IMG/VR virus record: IMGVR_UViG_3300032295_000430
Span: 1 to 53,840 of that record
Length of the DNA stretch: 53,840 nt
Source of the DNA: a virus
Lineage: Duplodnaviria; Caudoviricetes
Direction: 5' to 3' (one strand)
The notes under the pieces were generated by a model that did not search any database, had not been told where the DNA came from, and saw only the letters and a list, made by a program, of their open reading frames with translations. The translations under genes were made by a program, and so were the position numbers. Below, in pieces: positions 646 to 53,641 of this stretch (the stretch's first letter is position 1; each line of letters begins with the position of its first letter).

Positions 646-831
646 ATGCCAAGCAAACCAAACGGCTTGTATGCCAACATCAACGCCAAACGTAAACGTA
701 TCGCTGAAGGCTCTGGTGAAAAGATGCGCAAAGTTGGTAGCAAGGGTGCGCCTACAAAACAAGACTTTAAAGAGTCGGCAAAGACTGCCAAGATGAAAGC
801 TGGCGGCTCTGCTAAAAAAGCTTGTTGGTAA
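646..831 (+). CDS. small basic protein (GLYANINAKRKRI type) with MKAGG tag
   Basis: 61 aa, Lys-rich, tightly packed in the operon. Confidence 0.75.
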   Translation: MPSKPNGLYANINAKRKRIAEGSGEKMRKVGSKGAPTKQDFKESAKTAKMKAGGSAKKACW

Positions 832-833
832 TC

Positions 834-1238
834 ATGCCAGCCAAATCCAAAGCCCAGTTTCGCCTGATGAAGGCCGTTGCCAACAACCCTAAGTTTGCCA
901 AAAAAGTGGGCATTTCTGAGGATGTGGCGGATGAATATACGCAGTCTAATGTAGGAAAAAAGGCTTACGGGAAGCTGCCAGAGAAGAAGAAAGACGGCGG
1001 CCCTTCTCTTTCCGTAGGTCGGGGGGAGAAGTTATCGGCAGATCAGGGCGCGGGTCTGACAGCGAAGGGTCGAGCAAAGTACAACCGGGAGACGGGGAGC
1101 AATCTGAAGGCTCCGCAACCCGAGGGCGGAAAGCGCCGGGACTCGTTTTGTGCCCGGATGGAGCCGACAGCAAGAAGCTCTGAGCGCGGATCTCGTGCTC
1201 GGGCGTCAATGAAGCGGTGGAATTGTCCGGGTTGGTAA
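834..1238 (+). CDS. basic protein with C-terminal RRDSFCARM (DUF6321-like) domain
   Basis: ATG 834; two halves joined by KKDGG; RRxSFCARM…RASMKRWNC motif recalled from phage proteins. Confidence 0.7.
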   Translation: MPAKSKAQFRLMKAVANNPKFAKKVGISEDVADEYTQSNVGKKAYGKLPEKKKDGGPSLSVGRGEKLSADQGAGLTAKGRAKYNRETGSNLKAPQPEGGKRRDSFCARMEPTARSSERGSRARASMKRWNCPGW

Positions 1239-1247
1239 GGAGATAAA

Positions 1248-1541
1248 ATGCCAGATACAGACTTCAGATCTTATCCGACCGCGACTGGTCAGGTTTACGA
1301 AATAGATGGTGTCCCTGTCTCCAAGGCGGAGTTTGACACTCGTGCCGCCGCTTCTAAGCAGGCTGTGCAGAACTTTCGGACTACCAAAACAGAGGGTGCT
1401 GAAGATTTAGAGGATATGGCTGCTGCCGCTAGAGCCCGGCTCCTAAAAAAGCCAGCCCCAAAGAAACATGGTGGAAGCATGAAAATGGGGAAATCCAAGA
1501 TTTCTACCCATCAAAAGTCAAAAAAAGCGTCTTCATGGTAA
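1248..1541 (+). CDS. hypothetical protein with basic KKHGG tail
   Basis: AAGGAG RBS; 97 aa. Confidence 0.75.
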   Translation: MPDTDFRSYPTATGQVYEIDGVPVSKAEFDTRAAASKQAVQNFRTTKTEGAEDLEDMAAAARARLLKKPAPKKHGGSMKMGKSKISTHQKSKKASSW

Positions 1542-1550
1542 AGGATTGTC

Positions 1551-2609
1551 ATGGCGTATTCTGGAACCGTAGGACAAACAGTCGTTTCAGTCCAAGATCT
1601 GATCGATCACGGGGCTAGACGGTCTGGAAAGCTGGCTGAGGAGCTGACTTCTGAGCAGATTTACGCTGCCAAGCAGTCTCTTTTCTTCCTGCTGAGCAAC
1701 CTATCCAACATTGGCATCAACTACTGGGCTATTAGCCAGAAGGTTTTTGGCCTGAATGCCGACAAGTTCATTTATGAGCTACCTGCCGGGTCAATTGATG
1801 TCCTGAATGTGAACTACCGGACGATGAACCGCCCCACGGGCGACGTTTATGCGTCTTCTGGCAACGCAGCCAACGCTGTTGATAGTGACATCACTACTGT
1901 AGACGTACAAACATCCCCTAACGGCTATATTGCAATCAACTATGGCACTAACAACCCTATTTACTCTGGCTCTATTGGTATTTTACCGGGCGTTTCTGGA
2001 TCTTTTCACATCCTTTTAGAGGTCTCCAACGACGGTTCAAATTGGACGCTTCTGGAAGATACGGGCGTGACCACTTGGGTAGATAACCAGTGGCTCTGGT
2101 ATCAGATTGATCCGGGTGCAAGCGTTCAGTATTACCGCATGCGTGAGACTGGTGGCAATACGCTGCAAGTCCGTGAGTTCTATGTCGGCAATATGAGCCG
2201 GGAAGTTCCGATGGCTCGTCTGAACCGGGATGATTACACCTCCCTGCCAAACAAGAACTTTACCGCCAACCAGCCGTATCAGTTCTGGTTTAACCGCACG
2301 ATCCCATTCCCGCAGATCACTCTATGGCCGACTCCGTCTGACCCGTTTGTGCAGATGGTGGTTTGGTATTCCCGGCAGATTATGGATGTAGGCGCTCTGA
2401 ATGGGCAGCTTGAGATCCCTGACCGCTGGTATCTGGCTGTGCAGAACATGCTGGCTCATCAGATGGCTATGGAGCTCCCCGGCGTTGATCTGCAGCGGGT
2501 TCAGTACCTTGAGGTGCAGGCAGAGAAGTATTTGAATCTGGCTGAATCCGAAGAGCGTGACAAGTCGCCTATTTATTTGGCACCGAATATCGCTGTTTAC
2601 ACAAGGTAA
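1551..2609 (+). CDS. head-tail adaptor-like structural protein (P22 gp4 / tail tubular A-like) with a discoidin-like insertion
   Basis: Helical N-terminus (LIDHGARRSG…AKQSLFFLLSNL); ITLWPTP…IPDRWYLAVQNMLAHQMA C-terminus typical of adaptors; central NAVDSD…VSNDGSNW…YYRMR segment. Confidence 0.6.
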   Translation: MAYSGTVGQTVVSVQDLIDHGARRSGKLAEELTSEQIYAAKQSLFFLLSNLSNIGINYWAISQKVFGLNADKFIYELPAGSIDVLNVNYRTMNRPTGDVYASSGNAANAVDSDITTVDVQTSPNGYIAINYGTNNPIYSGSIGILPGVSGSFHILLEVSNDGSNWTLLEDTGVTTWVDNQWLWYQIDPGASVQYYRMRETGGNTLQVREFYVGNMSREVPMARLNRDDYTSLPNKNFTANQPYQFWFNRTIPFPQITLWPTPSDPFVQMVVWYSRQIMDVGALNGQLEIPDRWYLAVQNMLAHQMAMELPGVDLQRVQYLEVQAEKYLNLAESEERDKSPIYLAPNIAVYTR

Positions 2610-2612
2610 ACC

Positions 2613-7371: not shown

Positions 7372-7372
7372 T

Positions 7373-7880: not shown

Positions 7881-7886
7881 CCCAAT

Positions 7887-9018: not shown

Positions 9019-9502
9019 CCCTTATGTGATTATCGGTGCGCTTGTTTTTGCTATCTGCTCGTACTTCTATGGGCATCATACGGGTGTGCAGGTAACCAAG
9101 GCGGAGTGGGAGGCAGAGAAAGCGGTAGCCGCCGCAGAAGCTGCAAAGATATTGAAAGCGGAGCAGGACAAAGTACGTGAGTTCGAACATCTTCTGGCGA
9201 ACACACAAAACAAAGTGGAGAAGGTATATGTTGACAAGATTAGGACTGTGGAAGTGGAGCGCAAGCAGCTTGTTGATGTTGCTCGTACTGACGGGTTGTT
9301 CATCGACGCCGCGTGTCCAGACAGTAGTAACGCCGTGCCCAGTGCTGCCCCCAGTACCAGCAGCGATAATGGAGGAAAGAAAGCCCGACTTTCAGGAGAG
9401 GCTGCGGAAGCTCTTATCACCATTGCAGCCGACGCCGACGAAATCGTCCACCAACTAAAAGCTTGTCAGGAGATACTGAGGTTGGAACGGGAGCTTAAAT
9501 GA
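9011..9502 (+). CDS. Rz: Rz-like inner-membrane spanin
   Basis: N-terminal TM followed by coiled coil; LSGEAAEALITIAADAD…LKACQ C-terminus; ATG 9011. Confidence 0.8.
   Translation: MPNPYVIIGALVFAICSYFYGHHTGVQVTKAEWEAEKAVAAAEAAKILKAEQDKVREFEHLLANTQNKVEKVYVDKIRTVEVERKQLVDVARTDGLFIDAACPDSSNAVPSAAPSTSSDNGGKKARLSGEAAEALITIAADADEIVHQLKACQEILRLERELK
9228..9458 (+). CDS. Rz1: Rz1-like outer-membrane lipoprotein spanin embedded in Rz (+1 frame)
   Basis: GGAGAAGG RBS; lipobox LVLTG-C; Pro-rich mature part; fully inside Rz. Confidence 0.8.
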   Translation: MLTRLGLWKWSASSLLMLLVLTGCSSTPRVQTVVTPCPVLPPVPAAIMEERKPDFQERLRKLLSPLQPTPTKSSTN

Positions 9503-9930
9503 CCTGCGCAGTAGAAAGCTGCCAAGCAAAGGCTTTGGCAAAAGGTATGTGCAACGCGCACTACATTCGTGCTCGTCGCGGGAAAGACTTAGCCCCTCCC
9601 GTACAGTATTTTAACGCCACCAAAACTTGCATAGAATGCGGGGAGCCTACCAAGGGCAAAGGCGGACATGGGCGCTGTGCAGCGCACTACAAACTACATA
9701 AGCGCCTGACGTTTAAACAAAAGTTAATTGATATGCTGGGCGGAAAGTGTCAGATGTGCCAAGGTCAGTTCCACCATGCGGCGTTTGATTTTCACCATAG
9801 AGAAGCCAAAGTTGAGAACATAAGCAGTATGTTTGACTCGAAGTCAGAAGCTGAAGTTTTGGAAGAAGTTAAAAAATGCACATTGTTGTGCGCCAACTGT
9901 CATAGGATTCATCATGCGCGAAAACTTTGA
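9499..9930 (+). CDS. HNH homing endonuclease with N-terminal Zn fingers
   Basis: CQMC…FDFHH…LLCANCHRIHH. Confidence 0.85.
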   Translation: MTCAVESCQAKALAKGMCNAHYIRARRGKDLAPPVQYFNATKTCIECGEPTKGKGGHGRCAAHYKLHKRLTFKQKLIDMLGGKCQMCQGQFHHAAFDFHHREAKVENISSMFDSKSEAEVLEEVKKCTLLCANCHRIHHARKL

Positions 9931-10426: not shown

Positions 10427-10438
10427 TAAGGAAAAGCA

Positions 10439-11068: not shown

Positions 11069-11070
11069 CT

Positions 11071-14358: not shown

Positions 14359-14643
14359 ATGATCGACTTTATAAAACTATTTAACGCTACAGCAAAAGTC
14401 GCAAAACCGATGTCCCCAGACTTTGATAATGCAAAAAGTCTGGATGATCAACTTCAAGACATAGACGTAGACAGTCTTGATAGTTTGCTCATTGGTTTGT
14501 ATATGTGTGAACTCTACGGGATTCCTGAAGACAAGGGGAAAGAGCTTGTCCCTGTGACAGTCCGCGAGATCCACGACTTTTTGATGCAACACAAGACGAA
14601 AGAGCCGGAGTCCATTGAGGCGGCGATAGAGGCCATCAAATGA
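14359..14643 (+). CDS. acyl carrier protein (ACP)
   Basis: 94 aa, acidic; LQDIDVDSLDSLLIGLYMCELYGIP contains the DSL phosphopantetheinylation Ser (S39) and helix II; TVREIHDFL helix. Confidence 0.85.
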   Translation: MIDFIKLFNATAKVAKPMSPDFDNAKSLDDQLQDIDVDSLDSLLIGLYMCELYGIPEDKGKELVPVTVREIHDFLMQHKTKEPESIEAAIEAIK

Positions 14644-15749
14644 TCTATCTCACTCACTATAGGACGGCGGCTACCAGTAACGTGGAGTTGATGGAGGACG
14701 CAGTCTATCCGCAGCGGGTGCACTGGTTCCCAGAGACTTACGCCAAGGTGAAGATGGGGCTGACGTACCCGCCTCATAAGCTGGCTGAGAAGGTGCTGGA
14801 TCCTGCCCTGCTGAAGATGCTGAGGGAGCAGGAGGTAGGCAAGACGGCCTTTATTCTGGCAAGCGGTAACTCTCACTTTGCCGGGATTAACCAGCGCAAG
14901 TACGACAGCAAGCTGAGCTATGACTACAAGTTTTTGCCACTTACTCTGACTCAGGTGTATGCCGGCAGGGTAGCTCAGCAGTGTGGGGCTCAGGATCATG
15001 TTGTGACGGACGCCAGCGCCTGCGCATCTAGCCTGAAGGCTTTGATGGATGTGAATACGCTGATGAGTCACTACGGGTTTGCACGGGTCATTGTGTTGAC
15101 GGTAGAGGATGGGGTATCGAATGCTGTCCTGCAGTTCTTTGGTGAATCCAAGGCCGTCTTGACGGATGAGGAAGAGAAGACGGGGATCAAGCCGAGTGCC
15201 TTTGACAAGCAAAACCGGGGCTTTTATGTTGGACAGGGAGCCGCTCTTGCCGTCTTTGACAACTGGCTTACCCTTGATAAGACGGGGGATACGCCACTTG
15301 CTCAACTCTGCGGGGCTTATACCGCCTCAGAGGCCAGCACTAATGCAATTGGGCAACTAGAGAACGGTAGTGGCTTCATTAAGGCTATGGAAGGCGTCTT
15401 TGAGTTTTCTACGGTCAAGCCTCAGGATGTCAGAATTGTAAAAACCCATGGTACGGGGACAATTTCTAATAACATTTCGGAGTTAACTGCTTTACAATCT
15501 ACACTTAAAAGTTTCGTTGCCACCTCATACAAGCAGAGAATCGGTCATACGATGGGTGCGAGTGGGCTGCTGGAGACTTTGATGCTCTTGGAGGACATGC
15601 GTTCAGGCGTGATTCCAGAGATTCCGAACCGGACGGAAAGTGATGAAGTATTTTTATCTGAGCCTATCAGCCCGCCACCCGGCGCGGTGCTGAGCCTTGC
15701 AGCGGGGATGGGAAACGTCTACAGCGCAGCAATCTTTAAACCTATGTAG
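14640..15749 (+). CDS. beta-ketoacyl-ACP synthase (FabB/FabF-type condensing enzyme)
   Basis: SACASS (C128), KTHGTGT (H270), SYKQRIGHTMGASG (H303), GFYVGQGAA, SLAAGMG. Confidence 0.92.
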   Translation: MIYLTHYRTAATSNVELMEDAVYPQRVHWFPETYAKVKMGLTYPPHKLAEKVLDPALLKMLREQEVGKTAFILASGNSHFAGINQRKYDSKLSYDYKFLPLTLTQVYAGRVAQQCGAQDHVVTDASACASSLKALMDVNTLMSHYGFARVIVLTVEDGVSNAVLQFFGESKAVLTDEEEKTGIKPSAFDKQNRGFYVGQGAALAVFDNWLTLDKTGDTPLAQLCGAYTASEASTNAIGQLENGSGFIKAMEGVFEFSTVKPQDVRIVKTHGTGTISNNISELTALQSTLKSFVATSYKQRIGHTMGASGLLETLMLLEDMRSGVIPEIPNRTESDEVFLSEPISPPPGAVLSLAAGMGNVYSAAIFKPM

Positions 15750-39199: not shown

Positions 39200-39385
39200 A
39201 TGACTAAGGTAGATGCTGAGCGTGAGCGTATTGCTCTAATGGTCGAGCAAATGGGCATATTGGGCTACGGTACGCTGGCGATTGCCGCCGCTATACGCTG
39301 TGGCGTCAAGATGCCTGATATTGAAAAGATACATTCTCCGGCTGACAGGCGCAAACTCGCCAATAGCCCGTGGAGCGCTCCCTGA
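39200..39385 (+). CDS. hypothetical AERERIA…IAAAIR protein
   Basis: Stop overlaps the terL ATG. Confidence 0.55.
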   Translation: MTKVDAERERIALMVEQMGILGYGTLAIAAAIRCGVKMPDIEKIHSPADRRKLANSPWSAP

Positions 39386-40821
39386 TGGGTGACATTGCTG
39401 AGCTCCTGCGCGACCCTGAGCTCCGCCAGCAATACGTCAAGCTGCCCGCTACCTACCGCGCTGCTTTCGAGTGGCGCTCCCTCTGGCTCACAAAGGCTCA
39501 CGCCCATCAAGTCCGCCCGCCGGGTGATTGGTGGGACATCTGGCTGATGCTGGCTGGCCGGGGCGCAGGCAAGACCCGAACCGCCGCTGAAGAGCTCGGC
39601 TGGTGGGCATGGGATAACCCCGGCACCCGCTGGGTGGTGGCCGCGCCTACCTCGTCTGACGTTCGCTCGACCTGCTTTGAGGGCGACTCCGGCCTGCTCT
39701 CAGTCATCCCTAGTGTGCTGATCAAGGACTACAACAAGGCGCTGCATGAGCTCATGCTGGTCAATGGGAGTCTGATCAAGGGCATCCCGGCATCCGAGCC
39801 TGAGCGCTTCCGAGGCCCGCAGTTCCATGGTGGCTGGTGTGACGAGCTGGCTGCATGGGAGTACCTGCAAGAGTCATGGGACATGATGCAGTTCGGCCTG
39901 CGTCTGGGTAAGAAGGTCAGGCTGATCTGCACCACGACCCCGAGGCCGAAGGATCTGATCGTGGAGCTGGTAGGCCGGGAGGGCGACGATGTGGTGATCA
40001 CCCGCGCTTCGACGTATGCCAACATCGACAACCTCGCCGACAACTTCCGTAAGCAGATCCTGCAATACGAGGGCACCAGCCTTGGCCGGCAGGAGATCGA
40101 GGCCGAGCTGATCGACCCTGAAGAGTCTGGCATGGTCAAGCGGGAGATGTTCCGCCTGTGGCCTCCGAACAAGCCCTTCCCTAAGTTTGAGTTCATCCTG
40201 CAAAGCTATGACTGCGCGTACACGGAAAAGACTGTCAACGACCCGACGGCTGCAACGACTTGGGGAGTGTTTAAACCCGAGGACGGCCCCATGGGCGTCA
40301 TGCTCATCGATGCATGGCAGGATCGGCTTCAGTACCCGGATCTACGTCCGAAGGTTATTGAGGAATACAAAGTCTCATACGGCGCTGACCCCGAGGAAGA
40401 GGGCAGAGGAAACTTCACCGGCGGCAAGAAGGTGGATCTTGTTCTTATTGAGGACAAGGCGGCTGGCATATCCCTGATACAGGACTTGCAGCGTGCCCAC
40501 CTGCCAGTGCGTGCATACAATCCCGGCAGGGCTGACAAGATCCAGCGCCTGTCCATCGTGGCAAACATCATTGCGCACCGCCGTGTGTACATCCCTGAGA
40601 GCTCAATCAAGAGGGGCTATGTGAGAGACTGGGCTGAAGGCTTTGTGAGTCAGATCTGCTCTTTCCCCGAGTCAACACACGATGACTATGTGGACAGTTG
40701 CACACAGGCTCTGCGATACTTACGCGATGCGGGCTGGCTTGACATTGACCCGAAGCCTGTGGATGACGACGACGACTACGTCGAGCCGAGCCGGAAGCGC
40801 TCTAACCCTTACGCGACCTGA
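39385..40821 (+). CDS. terL: terminase large subunit
   Basis: AGRGAGKT Walker A; GWCDE Walker B; TTTP; QSYD, IEDKAAG and HDDYVD nuclease motifs. Confidence 0.95.
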   Translation: MGDIAELLRDPELRQQYVKLPATYRAAFEWRSLWLTKAHAHQVRPPGDWWDIWLMLAGRGAGKTRTAAEELGWWAWDNPGTRWVVAAPTSSDVRSTCFEGDSGLLSVIPSVLIKDYNKALHELMLVNGSLIKGIPASEPERFRGPQFHGGWCDELAAWEYLQESWDMMQFGLRLGKKVRLICTTTPRPKDLIVELVGREGDDVVITRASTYANIDNLADNFRKQILQYEGTSLGRQEIEAELIDPEESGMVKREMFRLWPPNKPFPKFEFILQSYDCAYTEKTVNDPTAATTWGVFKPEDGPMGVMLIDAWQDRLQYPDLRPKVIEEYKVSYGADPEEEGRGNFTGGKKVDLVLIEDKAAGISLIQDLQRAHLPVRAYNPGRADKIQRLSIVANIIAHRRVYIPESSIKRGYVRDWAEGFVSQICSFPESTHDDYVDSCTQALRYLRDAGWLDIDPKPVDDDDDYVEPSRKRSNPYAT

Positions 40822-40823
40822 TC

Positions 40824-43800
40824 ATGCCTAGCCCAAAAGACATTAAGAACCTACTCAAAGCAACCCAAGGCACGAAGGCCGGCAAGGCAGCGGATCTGGA
40901 GGAGTTGCTGGCGACGCTGCCCAAGGGCACCAAGGCGCAGCAGCTTGAGGCTGAGCTGATGTTCAAGCGGCTGGCTGAAGAGCAGGCGGCACGGTATGCC
41001 GCTCACACGCCACCGACCGAGCAGGGTAATGCCGCGCTGTCTGAGGCCAAGAAGGCGCTGAAAAAGAAGCAGGCTCCTGCCGTCATCATCCCCAGCAAGA
41101 TCTCAAACGTCCAGAAGGCTATCCGCGAAAGCAAGGGGTCGTTCGGTGCTAAGCGTGTGCAGCGGGCTGCTGATGAGATCAAGAACCTTGAAAGGCTGTA
41201 TACCGAAGAGGCGCTAAAAAAAGCGTTCGGCGGCGATAACGCCAAAGCCTTGATGACTATGAACCCGGAGGATTTTGAGAGATTTGCAATTCCGCTGGTT
41301 ATGCAAGAAAAAGGGTGGCCGGGTTCTGGGCCTAGGAAAGAAACCCTTCCAACACGGGAATACATCAATTATTTATCGGGCATTGATGAATTTCATGATG
41401 TCCCATTCCTTGAAATAAATAAACAACGACAAGGCTTGCCTTTAATACCTTTTGTCTCTGGGCATGAGGGGCGTCATCGTAATCGGGCGCTAGCTCAACG
41501 TGATGAGCCTGCTGGCTTAGTTCAATTTCTGCCCCGTGCTGAGTTGCGTGAGCCCTTCCCCCGTAGAGACCAAGAGGAATATCTGGAGGCGCTGAGGAAT
41601 GAACTGGAGATGACTGGCAACATGGTCTTGCCTGAGCGATACCTTGAAGATGGGGATGTCTACATCAAACGCCCAGAGATTAAACTGCCAGACATCTACG
41701 CCGAGGGTGGTGGCGTGCACATGGCCGGTGGTGGCAAAGCACTCAAGGCGCTGAAAGGTGCTGGCAAGGCGGCAGACGCCACGCAGGATGTCCAGTCGAT
41801 AGTGAGTGCCGGCAAGCCACTGACAGCCGCTGAGCGTGCCATGGTGGGCAAGCTTGCTGAGGAATACACCGCTAATCAGCCCGTCACCAGATTGTCTGAG
41901 GCGCTTGGCAACGTAGGCGCTGAGGGCAAGAACCTCCGGGTTACGCAAACCGACCGCACAAGCGCTCGGAACTTGGGTGGTGCCCCGTTCTCCATGATGC
42001 AGAAGGTTGACCCTCGTTACGCACAGGCCAAGGCAACGTGGGGCGTTAAGACGCCGGGTGCGGCCAAGAACATTACCAACCAGTCAGATGCGGATGTCAT
42101 ATGGTCTACCCTGATTGGATCAAAGACACAACACCGGTCTAACGAGCTGATTTTTGACAAGCTGTACAAGGCTTTCCAGAAGTCGGCCAAGGAAGGCAAC
42201 CTAAGCACAGAGTTGCGTACTAAGTTCAATGCGGCACTGGAGCCCATCTTTGGCGAGGGCGCTGACATTCTTGACCCGAAGCTTCGCAAAGAGATTGACA
42301 CGTTTGAGAAGCGGGCAATTGTCGGCAACCTGTTGTTGGGCAAGGACATTGGTGGCGCACAGCGTGGTGGCTCAATCATCCCCGGCATGAAGATCATGGC
42401 CGAGACTACTGAGCCGATGCTCAAAAACGCTGAGACGTTCTCTATCGGCCCACGCTTGTTTACATTGGATCAGGGTGTGATTACCCGCCCCGACCTGCAT
42501 CCTGCGTTCCCTGAGATATTGACGGGCGAGGATCTGAATCAGCTATTCATACCTGTCCCCAATCGTATTGCTCTGCCTACGTTCAATGAAGAGTTCAGGG
42601 CTAGGACAGGGCGCAAGAAGCCGTCATATTACGACCTGACGATGACGCCAGAAGGTGACCCGTACCCAACGCAGTTCGTTGACGAAGATTACCTAAACTT
42701 CCTCCAGAAGGAAGGCTACGCCGATGGCGGTGCTGTACACATGGCAGGCGGTGGTGATGCGGGCGAGGTGTCTGGCGATATGTTCAAACCTAAGCCGCTG
42801 ACAATTCCCTCCCCGCTGACTGACATGGTTGATGCAATCAGGCGGCAGTTCGGCAAAGAGAAGCGCTCGATGAGCAAGCCCGGAGCCGCGACAGACGTTC
42901 TGCTGCGTGGCCCCGTTGCGTTTGCTGCTGGCACGCCGATGGATCTGGTGGAGATGGCTGGTCAAGGTATTGACTATCTGCAGACAAGAATCCCCGGCCT
43001 GCGCACAAACGCTTCCGTAATGGATGAGCCAAGGTCTGTAGTGGACAAGCGCACACCAGACACAAATTACGAACCAAGGTTTAAATTTGCCCCAGAGCCA
43101 AAGGTGCAACCTAGCCTTCCGTTTGATGCAAGCCGATACATTCAGACAAGCGACCCGAAGCTGCGTGCTTTTATAAATAAGCGTCAAAAAGAAATAAATT
43201 CTGGCCTGCAACTTCCAATCGTTGAAGAGGCTCGGATGCCTTACGGTACAGAAGACTTCCAAAACAAGCTGCGTCAATCCGGCCTGACCACGGATGAAGA
43301 GCGCCCGCTGTTTGAGATTGGCACTGCGATTGCGTCCCCGTTTGCCGCACAGAAGGCGCTGAAGTACGGCAAGGCAGGCGCTCAGGCGCTGGCACCTACG
43401 TTCTCAGACATCTTGGAGACGCAGCTTCAAAACGTGACTGCCCCGATGCGTATGAGCATAGTTCCTGAAGGCGGCACTGTTGGCGGCAAGCTCAAAGCCC
43501 CGGCTAATGACATTGGCTTCTACAACCCCGTTGAGAAGGCGGCACTGAATGTGCAGCGTAAGAAGGGGCCGGGATCTGCGTTTGTATCCGACCTGAAGAA
43601 ACAGCCGGGTGTGAATGACGAGCGCCTTGCTGAGCTTGGCCTGAGCGACCTAGCATCCCGTCCTAATGTGACGAGGGAAGAGGTGCTGGCCGCTGCTCAG
43701 CAGAACCGCATACCGTTGCGTGAGACTGTCCTTAAAGAGGGTAAGGAGAGTCTGGAAGAGCTTAGCGACAACATATATCAGCTCAAAGATGACATGTCCT

Positions 43801-45695
43801 ACATGGACAACGACAGCCGGGAGTGGGCTGAGGCTGACCGTACTTTGACAAGGCTGCAGAAAGAATATGAGGCAGAGTCTCAAGCTAAGCGGGCTATGTT
43901 CGGGCCTAAGACTCATGCCGACTACAACATGCCCGGTGGTCAGAACTACCGTGAGATTCGTGTTGCGTTGCCTGCCGTAGAAAAGCCTCAATACTTTATT
44001 GCGTACAAAGACGGCAGCACCATGGGCACGGGGTTTGCCAGCAAGGCTGATGCAGAGGCTGAGCTTGCGGACTTGTTTGGCAGCAGGCCAGATCTTGAAA
44101 TTCGGCAAGGTAGTGGTAGCCGATCAATGACGGCAAAAAATGAAGAAAACTTCATGAACTCAACCCACCATGGTGATGAGCCCAACGTACTGTTCCACCT
44201 TCGCGTAGCTGATCACACTGACGTTGAGGGCAAGAAGGGTTTGTTGATTGATGAGTTGCAGTCTGACTGGCATCAACAGGGTAGGGAAAAGGGATATAAA
44301 CAAAATGCAGAGAAGGATTACAACAGCTATTTTGAGTCTTTGGGTGATCGTTTTATTGCTGAGCAAAAACAACAAAACATAAAAGCTGGGATGACCCCAA
44401 CAGATGCAGAATATTACGCCACAGAAATGTACTCAAGTTTAGCTCAGAGAGAAGGCCATCGTGGAATTGCTCGTGCACTGGGTGAGGAAGACAAACTGGT
44501 TGAGCTATCCAATCAATATAAACGAGACATAAACGCTTTACCTGACGCCCCTTTCAAAGACAACTGGTATCAGCTTGGCCTGAAGCGTGCAATCAAAGAG
44601 GCCGCAGACAGCGGCAAAGAGCGCGTGTACCTGACTACGGGGCAGAGGCAGGCTGATCGGTATGATTTGAGTAAACAGGTTAACCAAATTGATGTTGTAC
44701 CAAGAACGGATGCTGCAACAGGAGAGCAAACAAAAAGCATTGGGTTAAATCTTACTAACGGTGATTTTTATCGACTGGGCGTAGATAAAAATGGAATTGT
44801 GGACAATGTCAGCAATCAATCAATTTCCAATTTAAAAGGCAAACCTCTTGCAGAAGTTGTTGGAAAAGATGTTGCAAAGAAAATTTTGGAAGAGAATGCA
44901 CAAGTCTTGTCCGGCCTCGACCTCAAAGTCGGTGGCGAAGGTATGCGCCAGTATTACGACAAGAACTACCTGAACTTCTTGAAGAAGTACGCCAAGCAGT
45001 TTGGTGCGACGGTGGGAGAAACTACACTTCCGGGTGCGGCTAAAACACGCAATCAGTTGTCCGCTAGTGATATGCATAACATGATGGACAACCCTGAATT
45101 TAAAAAAATTCTTGATGAAGAGTTTATGAAGTTGGCCGACAAGCCTTTAATTACTGGAAAAATTGAACCGCAGGGCAATAATGAATTCAAAATAATGTGG
45201 AGTGATGGATCTTTTTCTGGTGGTTACAGCGCAGAAGGCGCAAGAGAAAGACTCGCCGTAGGCCGCAATTTAAAGAATGAAGAAGGCCAAGCATGGAACG
45301 CCGCATTAAAGCGGTTTGGTGGTGAGAAGGTGTACTACATCGACATCACACCAAAGATGCGCGAGTCTGCCGCCAAAGGCCAATCGTACAAAGATGGTGG
45401 CGCAGTAGCCATGGCCGAAGGCGGTCAACTGACCTTTGCCAAAGCCAACCAACTTCTGCAGCAGTATGTCGCCAATATGGCTAATGATGGCGCTGTACAC
45501 ATGGCTGAGGGTGGCGCTGTGGACTACGAGTCCCGCTTTAATGAGATGCTGCAGAAGCATGTGCAGGGCATGGCAGAGGGCGGCGAAGTGAATACCTATG
45601 ATTCAGACCCCGACATGTCTGACGGTGGTCGGTTTATTCAAGCGCCTGCCTTTGCTGATGGCGGCGCAGTGAAATCAATCTGGACAGTTAATTAA
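40824..45695 (+). CDS. 1623-aa multidomain (polyvalent-type) protein segmented by GG tags
   Basis: GHEGRHR (ParB-like) in segment 1; IDELQSDWHQQGR…PDAPFK in segment 3; AxGG-AVHMAGGG linkers. Confidence 0.75.
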   Translation: MPSPKDIKNLLKATQGTKAGKAADLEELLATLPKGTKAQQLEAELMFKRLAEEQAARYAAHTPPTEQGNAALSEAKKALKKKQAPAVIIPSKISNVQKAIRESKGSFGAKRVQRAADEIKNLERLYTEEALKKAFGGDNAKALMTMNPEDFERFAIPLVMQEKGWPGSGPRKETLPTREYINYLSGIDEFHDVPFLEINKQRQGLPLIPFVSGHEGRHRNRALAQRDEPAGLVQFLPRAELREPFPRRDQEEYLEALRNELEMTGNMVLPERYLEDGDVYIKRPEIKLPDIYAEGGGVHMAGGGKALKALKGAGKAADATQDVQSIVSAGKPLTAAERAMVGKLAEEYTANQPVTRLSEALGNVGAEGKNLRVTQTDRTSARNLGGAPFSMMQKVDPRYAQAKATWGVKTPGAAKNITNQSDADVIWSTLIGSKTQHRSNELIFDKLYKAFQKSAKEGNLSTELRTKFNAALEPIFGEGADILDPKLRKEIDTFEKRAIVGNLLLGKDIGGAQRGGSIIPGMKIMAETTEPMLKNAETFSIGPRLFTLDQGVITRPDLHPAFPEILTGEDLNQLFIPVPNRIALPTFNEEFRARTGRKKPSYYDLTMTPEGDPYPTQFVDEDYLNFLQKEGYADGGAVHMAGGGDAGEVSGDMFKPKPLTIPSPLTDMVDAIRRQFGKEKRSMSKPGAATDVLLRGPVAFAAGTPMDLVEMAGQGIDYLQTRIPGLRTNASVMDEPRSVVDKRTPDTNYEPRFKFAPEPKVQPSLPFDASRYIQTSDPKLRAFINKRQKEINSGLQLPIVEEARMPYGTEDFQNKLRQSGLTTDEERPLFEIGTAIASPFAAQKALKYGKAGAQALAPTFSDILETQLQNVTAPMRMSIVPEGGTVGGKLKAPANDIGFYNPVEKAALNVQRKKGPGSAFVSDLKKQPGVNDERLAELGLSDLASRPNVTREEVLAAAQQNRIPLRETVLKEGKESLEELSDNIYQLKDDMSYMDNDSREWAEADRTLTRLQKEYEAESQAKRAMFGPKTHADYNMPGGQNYREIRVALPAVEKPQYFIAYKDGSTMGTGFASKADAEAELADLFGSRPDLEIRQGSGSRSMTAKNEENFMNSTHHGDEPNVLFHLRVADHTDVEGKKGLLIDELQSDWHQQGREKGYKQNAEKDYNSYFESLGDRFIAEQKQQNIKAGMTPTDAEYYATEMYSSLAQREGHRGIARALGEEDKLVELSNQYKRDINALPDAPFKDNWYQLGLKRAIKEAADSGKERVYLTTGQRQADRYDLSKQVNQIDVVPRTDAATGEQTKSIGLNLTNGDFYRLGVDKNGIVDNVSNQSISNLKGKPLAEVVGKDVAKKILEENAQVLSGLDLKVGGEGMRQYYDKNYLNFLKKYAKQFGATVGETTLPGAAKTRNQLSASDMHNMMDNPEFKKILDEEFMKLADKPLITGKIEPQGNNEFKIMWSDGSFSGGYSAEGARERLAVGRNLKNEEGQAWNAALKRFGGEKVYYIDITPKMRESAAKGQSYKDGGAVAMAEGGQLTFAKANQLLQQYVANMANDGAVHMAEGGAVDYESRFNEMLQKHVQGMAEGGEVNTYDSDPDMSDGGRFIQAPAFADGGAVKSIWTVN

Positions 45696-45706
45696 AGGAA
45701 AGAATC

Positions 45707-48187
45707 ATGCCTGAGATGCCTATCGACCCTGAGTTTGGTCGCTTTATTGATGGCCTGCAGCAGACGCCTGATGGCGGCGCTATCGTTGAGCTTGAAGACG
45801 AGGAGCAGGAAATAGAAGAAATGCCTGATGGCTCGGCTGTCATTCGCTCTAAGTTCAAGACACCGGAAGAGGATGAGGACTTCTACGAGAACCTCGCAGA
45901 GACCCTGAATCCTTTGGACATGGACTCAATCGCCATGCGCTATCTGGATCTGATTGAGAAGGACAAGGAAGACCGCAAAGGCCGTGACAAGCAGTACGAG
46001 GACGGCCTGCGCCGCACTGGTATGGGTAACGACGCTCCGGGTGGTGCCAACTTCAGCGGTGCCTCCAAGGTGGTTCACCCGATCATGGCGGAGTCCTGCA
46101 TTGACTTCGCATCCCGTGCGATTAAGGAACTGTTCCCGCCTGACGGCCCGACCCGTACCAAGATTCTGGGTGAGGTGACGCCTGAGAAGACTGAGGTGGC
46201 CGAGCGCAAGCGTGATTACATGAACTGGCAGCTCACCGAGCAGATCGAAGAGTACCGCGACGAGCAGGAGCAGATGCTGACTCAGCTTCCGTTGGGTGGC
46301 TCACAGTACATGAAGCTCTGGTACGACGAGAAGAAGCGCCGTCCATGCGCTGAGTTCGTGCCTATCGACAACGTCTATCTGCCATTTGCATCCGGTAACT
46401 TTTACACCGCCCAGCGTGTGACTGAGGTTCATGAGATCACGGACTTTGAGTACAAGCAACGGATTGCCCGTGGCCTGTACCGGGACGTTAGCTTCATCCG
46501 TTCGACCTTGGAGCCTGAGCAGACTGGCCCTGAGAAGGCTAACGACAAGATCGAAGGCAAGTCGATGTCGGACAACGTGGACGGTTTGCGCCACATTTAC
46601 CACGTTTACACATGGCTGGAGCTTGAGGATGACACCCGCAGCGACGGTGAGATGGCTCCGTACATCATGATGATTGACGGCCAAGACCACGAGATGCTGG
46701 GCTTGTACCGTAACTGGGAAGATGGCGACGAGACGATGACCAAACTCGACTGGCTGGTTGAGTTTAAGTTTATCCCATGGCGTGGTGCCTACGCTGTTGG
46801 CCTGCCGCACCTGATTGGTGGCATGTCTGCGGCTCTGACAGGTGCTTTGCGGGCGCTTTTGGATACAGCTCACATCAATAACTCGGCCACGATGATGAAA
46901 CTGAAGGGCGGGAAGATCTCCGGCCAGTCAGATCAGATTGATGTGACGCAGGTTATTGAGATTGAAGGCGCTCCCGGCGTGGATGATGTGCGAAAAATTG
47001 CCATGCCACTGCCATTTAACCCGCCATCGTCGGTGCTTATGGAGCTTTTGGGCTGGCTTTCGACCCAAGCCAAGGGGGTAGTGACCACCGCAGAGGAAAA
47101 AATCGCTGATGTGAACGCTAATGCGCCTGTTGGCACCACTCAGGCGCTGATTGAGCAGGGTTCTGCCGTGTTTTCCTCGATCCACGCCCGTCTGCACGAG
47201 TCTCAGAAGCGGGTTTTGATGATTTTGGGGCGGATTAACCGCTGGTATCTGGACGATCAGAAGCGCGGCGATGTTGTTGCTGACCTTGAGGTCGATAAAT
47301 CGGACTTTATACGCAATTCCGACATCGTTCCGGTATCTGACCCCCATATTTTCAGCGAAACCCAGCGTATTGCGCAGATCCAGACGGTTGTTCAGTTCGC
47401 AGAGAAGCATCCTGACCTGTTTGACCGCCGTGCCGTGATCTCTCGGGCTCTAAAGCAGATGAAGGTGCCCAATGTGGCCGAGCTGATGCCTTCTGCCATC
47501 AAGCCGGGTGAGATGAATGCGATTGACGAGAACATGTCAATGGCACTGGGCAAGCCTGCCTTTGCGTATCCCGGTCAGGATCATCTAGCTCATATTATGA
47601 GCCACCTGAACTTTGCTTTGGATCCCACTATGGGCAGCAATCCTATCGTTGCCATGGCCTGCCTGCCGCAGGAGATGGAGCACATCAAGCAGCACATGGT
47701 TCTTTGGTACAAGGATCAGATGACAAAGTACGCTTCTGGCGATACGGGCATTGACTTCAGCAAGTACGACGAGAAAGGCATGACCAAGTCTATTGACCAG
47801 ACGGTTGCTGTTGCCTCTGAGCATGTGAAGATGGATACGCAGAAGGTCTTTGAGAAGGTGATGCCTGCCCTGCAGCAGTTGGGTCAGACGGTGGCTCAAA
47901 TGGTTCAGCAGCAGAAGCAGTCGGCTCAGATGTCTGATCCTGAGTCGCAGGCAGTGCTGCAGGCGTCGATGGCCGAGACCGAACGTCGTGCGATGCGCGA
48001 TAAGGCTGACATTGAGATGCAGACTCAGAAGCTGCAGACACAGGTTGCCATCAATACTGAGAACAACCTGACGAAGGAAAGGATGAAAGCGGCTGAGATT
48101 ACAGTCGATGGCGTCCAGTTACAGAAGGAACAGCAGGAAACTGCCCTATCGCTGCAGGAAGCAGCACAACGCAACTTAGGAGTTTAA
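45707..48187 (+). CDS. portal protein
   Basis: 826 aa; VHPIMAES…MNWQL…LPLGGSQYMK…GTTQALIEQG; position after terL. Confidence 0.85.
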   Translation: MPEMPIDPEFGRFIDGLQQTPDGGAIVELEDEEQEIEEMPDGSAVIRSKFKTPEEDEDFYENLAETLNPLDMDSIAMRYLDLIEKDKEDRKGRDKQYEDGLRRTGMGNDAPGGANFSGASKVVHPIMAESCIDFASRAIKELFPPDGPTRTKILGEVTPEKTEVAERKRDYMNWQLTEQIEEYRDEQEQMLTQLPLGGSQYMKLWYDEKKRRPCAEFVPIDNVYLPFASGNFYTAQRVTEVHEITDFEYKQRIARGLYRDVSFIRSTLEPEQTGPEKANDKIEGKSMSDNVDGLRHIYHVYTWLELEDDTRSDGEMAPYIMMIDGQDHEMLGLYRNWEDGDETMTKLDWLVEFKFIPWRGAYAVGLPHLIGGMSAALTGALRALLDTAHINNSATMMKLKGGKISGQSDQIDVTQVIEIEGAPGVDDVRKIAMPLPFNPPSSVLMELLGWLSTQAKGVVTTAEEKIADVNANAPVGTTQALIEQGSAVFSSIHARLHESQKRVLMILGRINRWYLDDQKRGDVVADLEVDKSDFIRNSDIVPVSDPHIFSETQRIAQIQTVVQFAEKHPDLFDRRAVISRALKQMKVPNVAELMPSAIKPGEMNAIDENMSMALGKPAFAYPGQDHLAHIMSHLNFALDPTMGSNPIVAMACLPQEMEHIKQHMVLWYKDQMTKYASGDTGIDFSKYDEKGMTKSIDQTVAVASEHVKMDTQKVFEKVMPALQQLGQTVAQMVQQQKQSAQMSDPESQAVLQASMAETERRAMRDKADIEMQTQKLQTQVAINTENNLTKERMKAAEITVDGVQLQKEQQETALSLQEAAQRNLGV

Positions 48188-48189
48188 TC

Positions 48190-48372: not shown

Positions 48373-48554
48373 GACACGAAAGCGACTTTATTGGCGCTGT
48401 AAAAGCGCGTCAGCACGAGATTGCCGCATCGTTGGCAGCGGGTAACTGCGTCAACTTTGAGACATATCAACGGCTGGTTGGCGAATATCAGGGGCTGGAA
48501 TATGCCCTTGCCATACTTAACAATCTATTAAGGGAAGAAGATGAACATGAATGA
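48369..48554 (+). CDS. conserved small head-module protein
   Basis: YQRLVGEYQGL. Confidence 0.7.
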   Translation: MRHESDFIGAVKARQHEIAASLAAGNCVNFETYQRLVGEYQGLEYALAILNNLLREEDEHE

Positions 48555-48978
48555 ACCGGTAGCTTCTAGCGAGGCTGAATTAGCTTGGGCATTCCCGAGC
48601 GTTAACCCCGGTGCTGAACCTCTTGGAGCAAGGATTTTGGTGCAACTGCGTCGTACCAAGAAGAAAGCAACCAGTGCCGGGATTATCTTGGTTGAAGAAA
48701 CCAAAGAGACCGAGAAGTGGAACAACATGGTAGCCAAGGTGCTGATGATTGGCCCGCTGGCATTTAAGAAGCGCGACACGATGGAGCCGTGGCCTGAAGG
48801 CGCATGGGCGCAAGTGGGTGACTACATCCGTGTCCCGAAATGGGGTGGCGACCGCTGGGAAGTACCTGTCCCCGGCGACGAGGATTACGAAGATCCTGCC
48901 CTATTTATGATTCTTAACGACCATGAACTCATTGCACGAGTCACTGGTGATCCGCTGGAAATGCGGGCTTTTATCTAA
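48541..48978 (+). CDS. groES: GroES/Cpn10-like co-chaperonin
   Basis: EPLGARILV…TSAGIIL…AKVLMIGP…VGDYI…ILNDHELIA. Confidence 0.85.
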   Translation: MNMNEPVASSEAELAWAFPSVNPGAEPLGARILVQLRRTKKKATSAGIILVEETKETEKWNNMVAKVLMIGPLAFKKRDTMEPWPEGAWAQVGDYIRVPKWGGDRWEVPVPGDEDYEDPALFMILNDHELIARVTGDPLEMRAFI

Positions 48979-48987
48979 GGAGTAACA

Positions 48988-49998: not shown

Positions 49999-50000
49999 TC

Positions 50001-50540: not shown

Positions 50541-50569
50541 GACACTTGTTAAACTGATAGGAGTAAATT

Positions 50570-51145: not shown

Positions 51146-51161
51146 TAAGGAGGAGTGAACC

Positions 51162-52076
51162 ATGGCAGCTCCAATGAGAAGTACCGACTTTCGTAGCATT
51201 GTCGAACCAATCCTGAATGAGTGTTTTGACGGTGTCTACGATCAGCGTACCGATGAATGGTCGCGTGTTTTCCGCGAGTCGGAAGGCATCCCACGTAACT
51301 ACCACGAAGAGCCAGTCCTGTACGGCTTTGGCGCGGCTCCACAACTGCCTGACGGTACTCCAGTATCGTATCAGCAGGGTGGCGTGCTGTTCCTCAAGCG
51401 TTACGTCTACTCCGTCTATGGTCTGGCATTTGCTCTGACCAAAGTTCTGGTTGAAGACGGTGACCATATCCGTATCGGTCAGGTGTATGCCCGTCACTTG
51501 GCTCAGTCTTTGATTGAGACCAAAGAAACGCTGTCAGCCAACGTGCTGAACCGCGCTTTCAACTCGGCTTACCCCGGCGGCGACGGTGTGCAACTGAACT
51601 CGGCTTCGCACCCAATCGTTAACGGCACCGCTTCCAACCTGCTGGCAACAGCAGCTAACCTGTCGCAGACCTCGCTTGAGCAGATGCTTATCCAGATCCG
51701 TCAAGCTGTGGACAACAACGGCAAGAAGATCCGTCTGGTTCCCCGCCAACTGGTGGTCGCTCCCGGCAACATCTTCCAAGCTGAAGTTCTCCTGAAGTCG
51801 GTTCTGCGTAGCGGCAACGCTAACAACGACATCAACCCGATCAAGTCGATTGGTCTGCTGGACGAAGGCGCTGCAGTTCTGTCGCGTCTGACTTCTGCTA
51901 CCGCATGGTGGGTTCAGACCGATGCTCCAGAAGGCATGAAGCTTCTGATGCGTCGTAAGCTGGAGAAGACCATGGAAGGTGACTTCGAAACTGACTCGAT
52001 GCGCTACAAGGCGACTGAGCGTTACGATGTGGGCTTCACTGACTGGCGTGCAATGTACGGCACACCGGGCGTCTAA
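51162..52076 (+). CDS. major capsid protein (HK97 fold, Mu gpT-like)
   Basis: AAGGAGGAG RBS; strong codon bias; PRQLVVAP; GDFETDSMRYKATERYDVGFTDWRAMYG. Confidence 0.88.
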   Translation: MAAPMRSTDFRSIVEPILNECFDGVYDQRTDEWSRVFRESEGIPRNYHEEPVLYGFGAAPQLPDGTPVSYQQGGVLFLKRYVYSVYGLAFALTKVLVEDGDHIRIGQVYARHLAQSLIETKETLSANVLNRAFNSAYPGGDGVQLNSASHPIVNGTASNLLATAANLSQTSLEQMLIQIRQAVDNNGKKIRLVPRQLVVAPGNIFQAEVLLKSVLRSGNANNDINPIKSIGLLDEGAAVLSRLTSATAWWVQTDAPEGMKLLMRRKLEKTMEGDFETDSMRYKATERYDVGFTDWRAMYGTPGV

Positions 52077-52085
52077 ACATGGGTT

Positions 52086-52103
52086 GGGGGGCTTCGGCCT
52101 CCC
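52086..52103 (+). terminator. C(UUCG)G hairpin after the major capsid gene (attenuator/stabiliser)
   Basis: GGGGGGC-TTCG-GCCTCCC; weak U-tract. Confidence 0.55.
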
Positions 52104-52121
52104 TCTTCACAGGAGAACGAA

Positions 52122-52571
52122 ATGGCACAAACTTATTTCGGTTCTACTTTGCGCTCCGGTTCTGGCACGTTGACTGACACCACTGACGGCGGTTTCGTCG
52201 TTTTGAGTCAAACAACTACTGTCACTACCGCTGCCGCTGGAACCGCAACTAGCGCAACAATCACCCTTCCTGCCTCGTCCCAGATTATCGACATTTATGC
52301 CGATATGACCGTGAACGAATCAGTAGGTGGTGGTACTGCTACAGCAATTGCAATGACCGTCGGCACAGTTGCCGCAGGCACTCAGTACGTTTCTTCGACT
52401 GATGTGTTTGCCGGTGGTAGAGCCGCTTTGACTTTTACTGCCGCACAATTAAGCGCAATGGCTGACATTGGTAACAATACCAATGTTGTTGTTACGCTCG
52501 ATCCTAACGGCACAATCGCCACAACTCAGGGTGTTATCCGCCTGACAGTTGTATACGCTCAAAAAGTTTAA
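52122..52571 (+). CDS. virion structural protein (beta-sandwich)
   Basis: AGGAG RBS; T/A/G-rich; after the major capsid gene. Confidence 0.7.
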   Translation: MAQTYFGSTLRSGSGTLTDTTDGGFVVLSQTTTVTTAAAGTATSATITLPASSQIIDIYADMTVNESVGGGTATAIAMTVGTVAAGTQYVSSTDVFAGGRAALTFTAAQLSAMADIGNNTNVVVTLDPNGTIATTQGVIRLTVVYAQKV

Positions 52572-52582
52572 GGAGGCACGAC

Positions 52583-53641
52583 ATGGGCCAATTTAAACCA
52601 ATGGTCAAAATGATGACCACGGAGCCTACCGTTGAGCTCAAACTCGCAAAAGGCGGCGCTGTAGCAATGAAAAAGGGTGGCTCTACTACCAAAGCCAAGA
52701 AGATGGCTATGGGTGGTTTAGGCACTATGGCTGCTCCTTCTATGCCTTCCAATATGCCTGCGTCAATGCCGGCAGGCCCAGCCCCTAAGAAGCCTTCTAT
52801 GGCTTCTCGTCGCAAGGCAATGATGGCGTCTAAGATGCCAGTACGCCCTGTGATGAAAGACGGTGGCATGCCTGAGTCACTGAAGAAGCACGCCGATATG
52901 CCTGCATCTAAAGCTCACAAGGGCTTGAAGACAGGTGGCGTTGTGATGGGTCAGGGCGGCTACAAGGATGGCTGCAGCGTAATCCCTGTGAGTGCCTCTA
53001 AAAAGGGCGCTGAGGGCTACGTTGAGACCAAGATGCACACTGCAACCCCTGATCGTTCGCCAGCTAAAACTGGTGGCGTGAAGATGGGCAACGGCGGTGG
53101 CTATAAAAAGGGCGGTGTGGCTAAGTATGCTAAGGGTGGCGGCGTTGAAAACAACGTCAGCACCACTCCTGCTGGCGTAACCAACACCACTACTGGTGGC
53201 GTTAGAAAAGGCAATGCTGGTGGTTATCGCAAAGGCGGTGCCACAAAAAAGTTTGCTGACGGTGGGGCTGTGCAGGACGATGGTCGTGCCGTCAAGATGC
53301 CACAAGGTAGTAAGCGTCCTCCAACACCTGTAAGTATTAATCAACTCTCTGGCACCTACAAAAAGGGTGGCAAGGTTAAGAAGTACGAAGGTGGCGGTGG
53401 CGTAAGCGACAACGAAATGGCTTACAACAAGTTTTATGAGGATGAAGAGAAGGAAAATCGGGAGACTCGTGATCAATTCATGAGAGCTTTGAAGAGCCCG
53501 ATTAGTACCATCAGGAAGATTCCTCGTAAGATTGGTGAGGCTATGGATGCATTGGGTGGTAAGGGCTCTGTTAGCACCAAAGAGCGCGAAGTCACTCGCA
53601 CTGTTGTCCCCGGCAAGAAACGTGGTGGCAAGGCTTGTTGA
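52583..53641 (+). CDS. basic low-complexity protein with many [MYFL][AKR]xGG repeats
   Basis: AGGAGG RBS; K/G/M-rich. Confidence 0.8.
   Translation: MGQFKPMVKMMTTEPTVELKLAKGGAVAMKKGGSTTKAKKMAMGGLGTMAAPSMPSNMPASMPAGPAPKKPSMASRRKAMMASKMPVRPVMKDGGMPESLKKHADMPASKAHKGLKTGGVVMGQGGYKDGCSVIPVSASKKGAEGYVETKMHTATPDRSPAKTGGVKMGNGGGYKKGGVAKYAKGGGVENNVSTTPAGVTNTTTGGVRKGNAGGYRKGGATKKFADGGAVQDDGRAVKMPQGSKRPPTPVSINQLSGTYKKGGKVKKYEGGGGVSDNEMAYNKFYEDEEKENRETRDQFMRALKSPISTIRKIPRKIGEAMDALGGKGSVSTKEREVTRTVVPGKKRGGKAC

Follow-up and report, generated by a model that had tools for sequence, protein, structure and literature searches.

The viral record IMGVR_UViG_3300032295_000430 (Duplodnaviria; Caudoviricetes) is a stretch of 53,840 bases, referred to here as the window, and its completeness is estimated at 96%. 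A short peptide ending in two glycines, [MYFL]-[AKR]-x-Gly-Gly, recurs in several otherwise unrelated late proteins of this phage and is the subject of the present work. As the same exact 19-nucleotide direct repeat is carried by both ends (positions 1–19 and 53822–53840), the record, or its assembly, closes on itself. An open reading frame (ORF) split by the ends then becomes an intact β-rich protein. The late block lies on the plus strand and begins with the small and large terminase genes, followed by ORF40824, the portal gene and a gene for a GroES-like protein. After these come a probable scaffolding gene (ORF48988), two unannotated ORFs, the major capsid gene, the variable ORF52122, and ORF52583. 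Past the end junction are the β-rich protein, ORF646, ORF834 and ORF1248, then the SU10-type adaptor proteins and, further along, a fibre, genes for lysis and large proteins of internal type, ORF16197 and ORF18197 among them (Table 1).

Table 1. Features of the window discussed in the text (pI, isoelectric point; pLDDT, predicted local distance difference test score; aa, amino acids; M1 to M3b, modules of ORF40824).
Feature	Position	Strand	Remarks
β-rich protein, 263 aa	53673–53840 joined to 20–643		phrog_8198
ORF646, 61 aa	646..831	+	phrog_16028; basic module B, then MKAGG (residues 50–54) and a 7-residue tail ending Cys-Trp
ORF834, 134 aa	834..1238	+	module A (1 to about 50), KKDGG (52–56), module C; Pfam DUF6321 at 70–129
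ORF1248, 97 aa	1248..1541	+	basic; KKHGG at residues 72–76
HNH/endonuclease VII-like gene	9499–9930	+	inserted in late block
ORF14640, β-ketoacyl-synthase-like	14640–15749	+	phrog_35856; Pfam Ketoacyl-synt_C E 3.4e-16, N-terminal domain E 1.6e-9
ORF16197, 665 aa	16197..18194	+	Ala/Gly-rich internal-type protein ending ...VARGGLITLKKQR
ORF18197, 458 aa	18197..19573	+	disordered Ser/Tyr/Pro-rich region, motif copies (308–359), tape-measure-type C-terminal element
HNH/endonuclease VII-like gene	19570–20055	+	inserted in late block, between ORF18197 and ORF20058
Large terminase	39370–40821	+	directly 5' of ORF40824
ORF40824, 1623 aa	40824..45695	+	polyvalent-type multi-module protein between large terminase and portal; M1 1–291, M2 305–631, M3a/M3b 645–1520, C-terminal tail 1521–1623
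Doublet YAEGGGVHMAGGG	41697..41735	+	M1/M2 joint, residues 292–304; pLDDT about 25–30 (model residues 8–20)
Module M2	41736–42716		
Doublet YADGGAVHMAGGG	42717..42755	+	M2/M3 joint, residues 632–644; confidence <50 from model residue 350
ORF40824 tail copies	45387..45665	+	YKDGG, MAEGG (three times) and FADGG, parting conserved mini-peptides
Tail mini-peptides	45426–45665		between motif copies
Portal protein	45707..48187	+	phrog_1216; no motif copies
GroES/Cpn10-like protein	48541–48978	+	Pfam E 1.2e-5; between portal and scaffold
ORF48988, 336 aa	48988..49998	+	probable scaffolding protein; acidic N-terminus, coiled coil; no family match
ORF50001, 179 aa	50001–50540	+	between scaffold and capsid gene
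Major capsid protein	51162..52076	+	Pfam Phage_capsid_4 and Mu-like gpT; no motif copies
ORF52583, 352 aa	52583..53641	+	basic (pI 10.2), Gly/Lys-rich; 10 strict copies; near-invariant N-terminus, C-terminal Cys

A search with the portal protein confirmed at least 608 relatives, and the comparison used the best 80 loci among them. By capsid protein, the closest cultured phages are the Caulobacter phages RW, RLK, KcrB and GB2A (76% identity), followed at about 40% by the HTVC023P-type pelagiphages and roseophage CRP-901. Conservation of the capsid protein far exceeds that of the proteins encoded beside it, at 84–99.7% identity in 52 loci compared with 58–95% for the portals; against phage RW the corresponding values are 76% for the capsid protein and 46% for the portal.

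The strict pattern, [MYFL][AKR]xGG, a definition made after the fact, was counted in 75 chosen ORFs (16,962 amino acids), with 2000 per-protein shuffles as the control. It was observed 27 times, whereas the shuffle mean was 4.70 (standard deviation 2.12, maximum 15), and this bears out the enrichment over composition that the original prediction of the motif had proposed as a check. Ten copies each were found in ORF40824 (0.55 expected) and ORF52583 (0.36 expected), numbers reached in 0/2000 shuffles, and three in ORF18197 (0.20 expected; shuffle fraction 0.002). As 23 of the 27 strict copies fall in these three proteins, the earlier description of the motif as genome-wide was overstated, although several unrelated late proteins do carry it. 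All of the instances that had been named, in ORF646, ORF834, ORF1248, ORF16197, ORF18197, ORF40824 and ORF52583, are present. However, the “about 11” copies of ORF52583 come to 10 strict ones, and VARGG, said to be at the extreme C-terminus of ORF16197, occupies residues 653–657 of 665, 8 residues from the end. The reported absence from early proteins is real but uninformative (34 proteins, 3916 amino acids, 0.64 copies expected, P(0) = 0.52).

Taken singly, the matches in ORF646 (shuffle fraction 0.03), the fibre ORF5578 (two matches, 0.087) and the scaffold ORF48988 (one match, 0.03) are near chance. The lone copies in ORF646, ORF834, ORF1248 and ORF16197 are likewise not individually significant, yet they are kept in relatives and lie at module boundaries. 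Glycine content alone does not generate the pattern, as the Gly-richest protein, ORF5578, has 30 GG sites and only two strict matches. The wider consensus is φ-[A/K]-x-G-G-x-V, in which φ is M, Y, F or L and Val stands two places past the GG in 44–62% of sites. Codons at 23 sites vary synonymously, and any two 21-nucleotide sites share at most 18 bases, which argues that conservation and selection act on the protein rather than on the DNA. A DNA-level repeat or recombination linker was considered and rejected, since codon usage differs from site to site. Each of the five whole relatives has 9–24 strict copies in the same protein classes, and phage RW, which is without ORF40824, ORF52583 and the small-module cassette, has five. 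Copies are kept at aligned positions in relatives, as had been anticipated. These sequence comparisons support the view that the motif is a selected, position-specific signal beyond an effect of composition.

The copies are densest in ORF52583. All 38 of its homologues in the best 80 loci carry 5–13 strict copies, 30 of the 38 have a C-terminal Cys, and the GG pairs are invariant columns in a 22-sequence alignment reaching down to 42% identity. When the ORF52583 profile was run against 1.84 billion cluster representatives, 495 members were found at E ≤0.001 and 224 at E ≤1e-30. The best 150 of the 495 all have at least five copies (5–16, median 9, vs 0.35 expected); among these 150, 98 begin with M-G-x-F, 87 have a C-terminal Cys, and 84 finish with GG, 0–4 residues and Cys. 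Preferred spacings between copies in the family are 8–10 and 12–13 residues. If a cut following the GG is assumed, the fourth residue upstream (P4) is A or K in 99% of 1382 sites. The copies in ORF52583 are not independent of each other, given the longer repeats within this protein. Ten family clusters (65 members) were looked up, and every source-named member is a “hypothetical protein”. On this profile evidence, ORF52583 is the founder of a previously unnamed protein family built around the motif. In the homologue of relative L012 (L012 17321–18439), a B module of the ORF646 type is inserted between two motif copies, which shows that modules pass between the repeat protein and the proteins built of small modules.

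The building blocks of ORF646, ORF834 and their relatives are small modules, five or six in number (A, A2, B, C, D and E, where C is DUF6321), which are strung together in 13 arrangements. In 55 distinct proteins of this kind, xxxGG is present at 56/56 joints, of which 42 are strict and 14 have K, H or Q in the first position (as in KKDGG). Proteins consisting of C only have no strict motif (8/8), and their genes begin where the joint would be. In proteins consisting of B only the motif is kept (2/2), with a short tail containing Cys after it. The motif is missing from the end of some A-B proteins. The GG of ORF1248 is kept in 2/2 homologues (KKSGG and NKHGG). The cassette proteins are strongly basic (pI 9.8–10.4). 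Four basic proteins of the cassette end in a basic patch with Cys or Trp, namely ...KKRGGKAC, ...SAKKACW, ...RWNCPGW and ...KKASSW (window positions 53617–53641, 811–831, 1212–1238 and 1521–1541, respectively), and these ends may represent a further signal at the C-terminus, or else a site for metal or for a disulfide.

DUF6321 is also C-terminal in many long metagenomic proteins, some of them with ART-PolyVal, SLT, MuF or SU10-adaptor domains. The 120 DUF6321 proteins listed hold 133 strict motifs against 21.7 expected, with a bimodal distribution in which 78 have no motif and 37 have two or more. The start of DUF6321 could be located in all but 18 of the 120, and joint fractions are out of 102. 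Of the joints immediately upstream of DUF6321, 34 carry the strict motif, 4 show a different GG and 63 have no GG (mostly φ-x-E-E-x-G instead), and in one protein DUF6321 is N-terminal. In one DUF6321-containing metagenomic protein of 1529 amino acids (P0085), the modules are joined by another conserved peptide, roughly V-V-A-G-L-R-E-L, which occurs in eight repeats. This is a second junction “dialect”, and lineage-specific dialects would fit sites that evolve together with a protease.

The modules of ORF40824 behave in a similar manner. M1, M2, M3a and M3b are present in other positions or combinations in 8, 19, 21 and 34 database proteins, respectively. Where alignments reach the end of the module, the motif follows M1 in 5/5 cases and M3b in 6/6, while the end of M2 in relatives is followed by a strict motif in 15/17 and by another GG in 2/17. 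The doublet at the M2/M3 joint follows M2 in relatives irrespective of which module comes next. The tail with its five copies is kept in L002 and L027, and a strict copy is absent in 5 of 41 ORF40824-type ORFs. Residues 285–660 were modelled with AlphaFold2 (11-row alignment, mean pLDDT 75, predicted template modelling score 0.72). Model residues 47–349 form a confident domain, whereas both flanking doublets have confidence below 50, and at the M2/M3 joint the drop comes directly after a confident helix. The doublets are thus predicted to be accessible linkers. An exception to the setting first proposed for the motif (termini, linkers or disordered regions) is LKVGG at residue 1367 of ORF40824, which is inside an invariant GGEGM block of a folded module.

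ORF40824 has no Pfam family match. In BFVD, the M2 model matched a PcfJ-like phage protein (E 2.6e-21) and a “structural protein” of a Flavobacterium phage (E 6.4e-4), and Foldseek found no match for this fold in the PDB. VIA-align gave weak YTH/ASCH-like and death-fold-like rows for M2 with Z up to 5.8, below the meaningful level. The M3b profile found nothing among PDB sequences or in Pfam, and Atlas searches returned only viral clusters without names. The tail mini-peptides, ...N-T-x-P-D-x-S-D-x-G-x-x-I-Q-x-P-A-F... and ...V-D-Y-x-x-x-F/Y..., recur in the distant polyvalent-type proteins P0039 and P0046.

Polyvalent proteins have been described as large late proteins of many unrelated, shuffled domains that are presumed to be packaged and delivered, and their processing into units has been predicted (Iyer et al. 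2017, PMC5512222). ORF40824 likewise contains unrelated domains in one polypeptide, their order differs between relatives, and it is encoded among late/virion genes. Pfam gave no match in ORF40824 itself to the catalogued PolyVal domains (MPTase, ART-PolyVal, DdrB-ParB and others); proteins sharing M2 or DUF6321 carry ART-PolyVal (PF18760), SLT (PF01464) and MuF (PF04233). By analogy, ORF40824 appears to be a phage polyvalent-type protein, and its delivery to the host is presumed from this type. In PMC5512222, processing is assigned to embedded zincin MPTase domains, and its main text uses neither “glycine” nor “linker” (0 occurrences each). Unlike the polyvalent proteins in that main text, the proteins described here have a defined junction peptide and no peptidase domain was found in them; moreover, the same peptide is also carried by a non-polyvalent basic repeat protein and by small module proteins.

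In ORF18197, the copies GKDGG, MAEGG and MAQGG (twice) precede a C-terminal element, and relatives keep two to four copies just before it. [quoted passage not shown] In the Douge and JBD30 tape measure proteins, [YF]-A-x-G-G stands directly before the element, and gp066c of phage RW has one motif copy before and one after an ORF18197-like C-terminal element. [quoted passage not shown] According to this paper and that on Douge (PMC13033339), the region of the element is unresolved in both structures, and neither available text discusses the [YF]-A-x-G-G peptide. Unlike JBD30 and Douge, the phage studied here has podovirus-type adaptor genes (SU10 adaptor, Pfam) and no tail tube. At the C-terminus of ORF16197, VARGG or VRRGG is kept in L085 and L083.

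Overall, we have shown by sequence analysis that the motif does not arise at random, keeps its position in relatives, is selected at the protein level, occurs at each fusion joint examined, and is lacking in strict form from C modules encoded alone. The original prediction of a sorting or processing code is partly supported, in that the peptide is a selected, position-specific signal. It is best explained as a junction code of this phage clade, placed in disordered linkers where modules join or proteins end. The proteins concerned, namely ORF40824, ORF18197, ORF16197, ORF52583, ORF646, ORF834 and ORF1248, are probably packaged in the virion and ejected. Fusion joints match gene boundaries, the setting is disordered, and the pattern extends over seven positions, which argues that some factor reads the peptide. 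Cleavage best accounts for the joints always carrying the motif, for C-only modules not doing so, and for one basic protein being filled with it. We therefore tentatively favour, with somewhat less than even confidence, a role of the motif as the recognition site of a putative protease of phage or host origin. Such a protease would: cut fused precursors into separate modules; dice ORF52583 into short basic peptides; and act during head maturation or after ejection. In support of cleavage, the separate C genes start at the joint position; M1, M2 and M3b are trailed by the motif wherever they are placed; and polyvalent-type DUF6321 proteins of other lineages use the same joints.

Several observations weigh against cleavage. 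No protease was found among the 75 ORFs by Pfam, PHROGs, NCBIfam or PDB-sequence profiles, in agreement with the earlier remark that no classical prohead protease is visible; many late ORFs match nothing in these searches. Nor did the sequence-family searches of these ORFs give any match to a cysteine protease family of the adenain/African swine fever virus clan. Genes shared by the window and the five whole relatives but missing from the motif-poor phage RW encode small module proteins, ORF52583, a 61-amino-acid ORF, an exonuclease-like protein and unannotated proteins, and no protease candidate is among them. The PHROG “protease” matches of the capsid protein cover only the capsid part of those families. 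The capsid protein has no copy of the motif, and the single copy in the scaffold (LRQGG) is lost in the 96%-identical L081 homologue, so that a classical prohead protease acting on the motif is not indicated. By its position and its many invariant His, Cys, Asp and Glu residues, ORF50001 is a protease candidate; its AlphaFold2 model is poor (pLDDT 47.9), and the PDB profile search and PHROGs were empty. In other lineages, the GG-less joints of DUF6321 (63/102) imply that the motif is not obligatory for such fusions. Finally, several copies are located 2–13 residues from a C-terminus, and the doublets are 8 residues apart. Cutting would seem to have little purpose there, whereas docking would make sense.

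Short cleavage motifs in unrelated proteins have precedents. Prohead proteases recognize [LI]-x-E in T4 and S/A/G-x-E in phiKZ and SPN3US, and the scaffolding core of T4 is degraded, which is a precedent for a basic protein filled with sites. Like these codes, the motif is short, common to unrelated proteins, and present in many copies in one sacrificial-type protein. Unlike them, it has GG rather than E, the capsid protein has no copy and the scaffold no conserved one, and sequence searches recognized no prohead protease. The adenovirus protease cuts at (M/I/L)-x-G-G↓x, its substrates being basic DNA-bound core precursors, and polyprotein processing in African swine fever virus occurs at GG↓x. 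The likeness to these viruses lies in a hydrophobic residue upstream of an invariant Gly-Gly and in basic substrates. However, in this bacteriophage the bulky residue is one position further from the GG, i.e., at P5 if the cut follows GG, with A or K at P4 instead of a hydrophobic residue, and family searches of the 75 ORFs detected no such cysteine protease. Double-glycine leaders exported by C39 transporters do not fit either, as the motif is not in N-terminal leaders and searches of the window found no C39 transporter gene. As regards position, the comparison first drawn with the T4 capsid-targeting sequence fails: copies lie internally or C-terminally, in no case as an N-terminal leader, and the proteins that bear them have mutually unrelated N-termini.

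If cleavage does occur, a wider view is possible, although we consider it doubtful: a large clade of uncultured freshwater phages, along with other lineages using the same joints, may practise a polyprotein economy in which effector modules, small basic DNA-associated proteins and a sacrificial repeat protein are made as fusions punctuated by φ-[A/K]-x-G-G-x-V and are cut by an unrecognised protease. Cutting would take place within the capsid or in the cell just infected, at exact, predictable sites. Once released, the basic Cys-ending tails past the last GG might serve as cofactor-like peptides.

Instead of being cut, the motif might serve as a docking peptide that binds the capsid interior, the scaffold, the portal, the tail lumen or other cargo, and that loads cargo or orders its ejection; ORF52583 with its roughly ten copies would then be a multivalent adaptor. 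Docking would suit a short motif that is present in many copies, frequently paired as doublets, within disordered stretches and close to C-termini, and that the B-only proteins keep with a short tail. The same is true for its place directly before the predicted tail-lumen anchor, the tape-measure “hook”, in ORF18197, RW gp066c and the two siphovirus tape measure proteins, which is a further point against cleavage, and for the unusual conservation of the capsid protein in the clade, as might be expected of a shared hub. There is also a parallel in phage crAss001 (Bayfield et al. [quoted passage not shown] Its cargo protein gp45 docks to the portal and tail barrel by short segments, and nowhere does that text use the stem “cleav” (0 occurrences), so this example favours docking over cutting. 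Unlike crAss001, the phage analysed here belongs to another lineage, has an HK97/Mu-gpT-type capsid and a genome of 54 kb, and is uncultured. On the other hand, the C-only proteins without a strict motif (8/8) and the A-B proteins ending without one imply that it is not a tag which every unit needs. No receptor or other partner was identified in the sequence and profile searches of the window ORFs, and it is difficult to name a partner that podovirus cargo and siphovirus tape measure proteins would have in common. We consider docking rather unlikely.

To an uncut hinge we give a comparably low credence. The peptide would be the standard flexible linker of the clade, spread by module shuffling without any specific reader, and it would aid packing or threading through the portal and tail. 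Its constant presence at fusion joints, its absence in strict form from C-only modules and its predicted disorder are all consistent with a hinge, as is the statement in the available crAss001 text (PMC10172136) that cargo must partly unfold to pass the tail. The GG-less joints of DUF6321 elsewhere also suggest that the exact peptide is replaceable. However, a hinge leaves unexplained why a seven-position pattern (bulky residue, A/K, GG and Val) holds across non-homologous contexts, why copies are found at protein ends, where nothing is joined, and why one family maintains 9–16 copies with invariant GG columns. An artefact of Gly/Lys/Ala richness or of recent internal DNA duplication, with no function, could appeal to the post hoc definition, the near-chance single matches (ORF646, ORF5578 and ORF48988), the dependent copies of ORF52583 and the match in the folded core of ORF40824, but it is contradicted for ORF18197, ORF40824 and ORF52583 by the shuffles, by the copies kept at aligned positions to 42% identity and across 150 family representatives, by the GG-rich but motif-poor ORF5578 and by the differing codons, and is very improbable. 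Readings beyond these four likewise seem highly improbable.

Polyvalent proteins and their presumed processing were already known from the text of PMC5512222. Our text searches of a paper library found no description of this motif in phages. The cut sites and loading signals of phage polyvalent and cargo proteins are almost unknown, and the motif supplies exact, testable positions in hundreds of related phages; in addition, the previously unnamed ORF52583 family, with its 495 cluster representatives, is now defined. Should the motif be a cleavage site, the mature products of uncultured phage proteomes would be predictable, and it would point to the missing protease. Should it be a docking peptide, it could be used as a portable tag with which foreign proteins are brought into capsids. 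If the polyprotein economy is real, it would be a bacteriophage counterpart of core processing in adenovirus and African swine fever virus.

A few neighbouring genes deserve mention. ORF14640, located among the virion genes, was considered as an odd Cys enzyme; it was found in 0/5 of the whole relatives and is thus not part of a conserved motif machinery. L085 has a 369-amino-acid ORF at this position. The two HNH/endonuclease VII-like genes inserted in the late block were found neither in RW nor in the five whole relatives, and in L085 the homologues of ORF18197 and ORF20058 have no such gene between them. The GroES/Cpn10-like gene is kept in all of the relatives and in phage RW, and its product is possibly a co-chaperonin for folding of the capsid protein.

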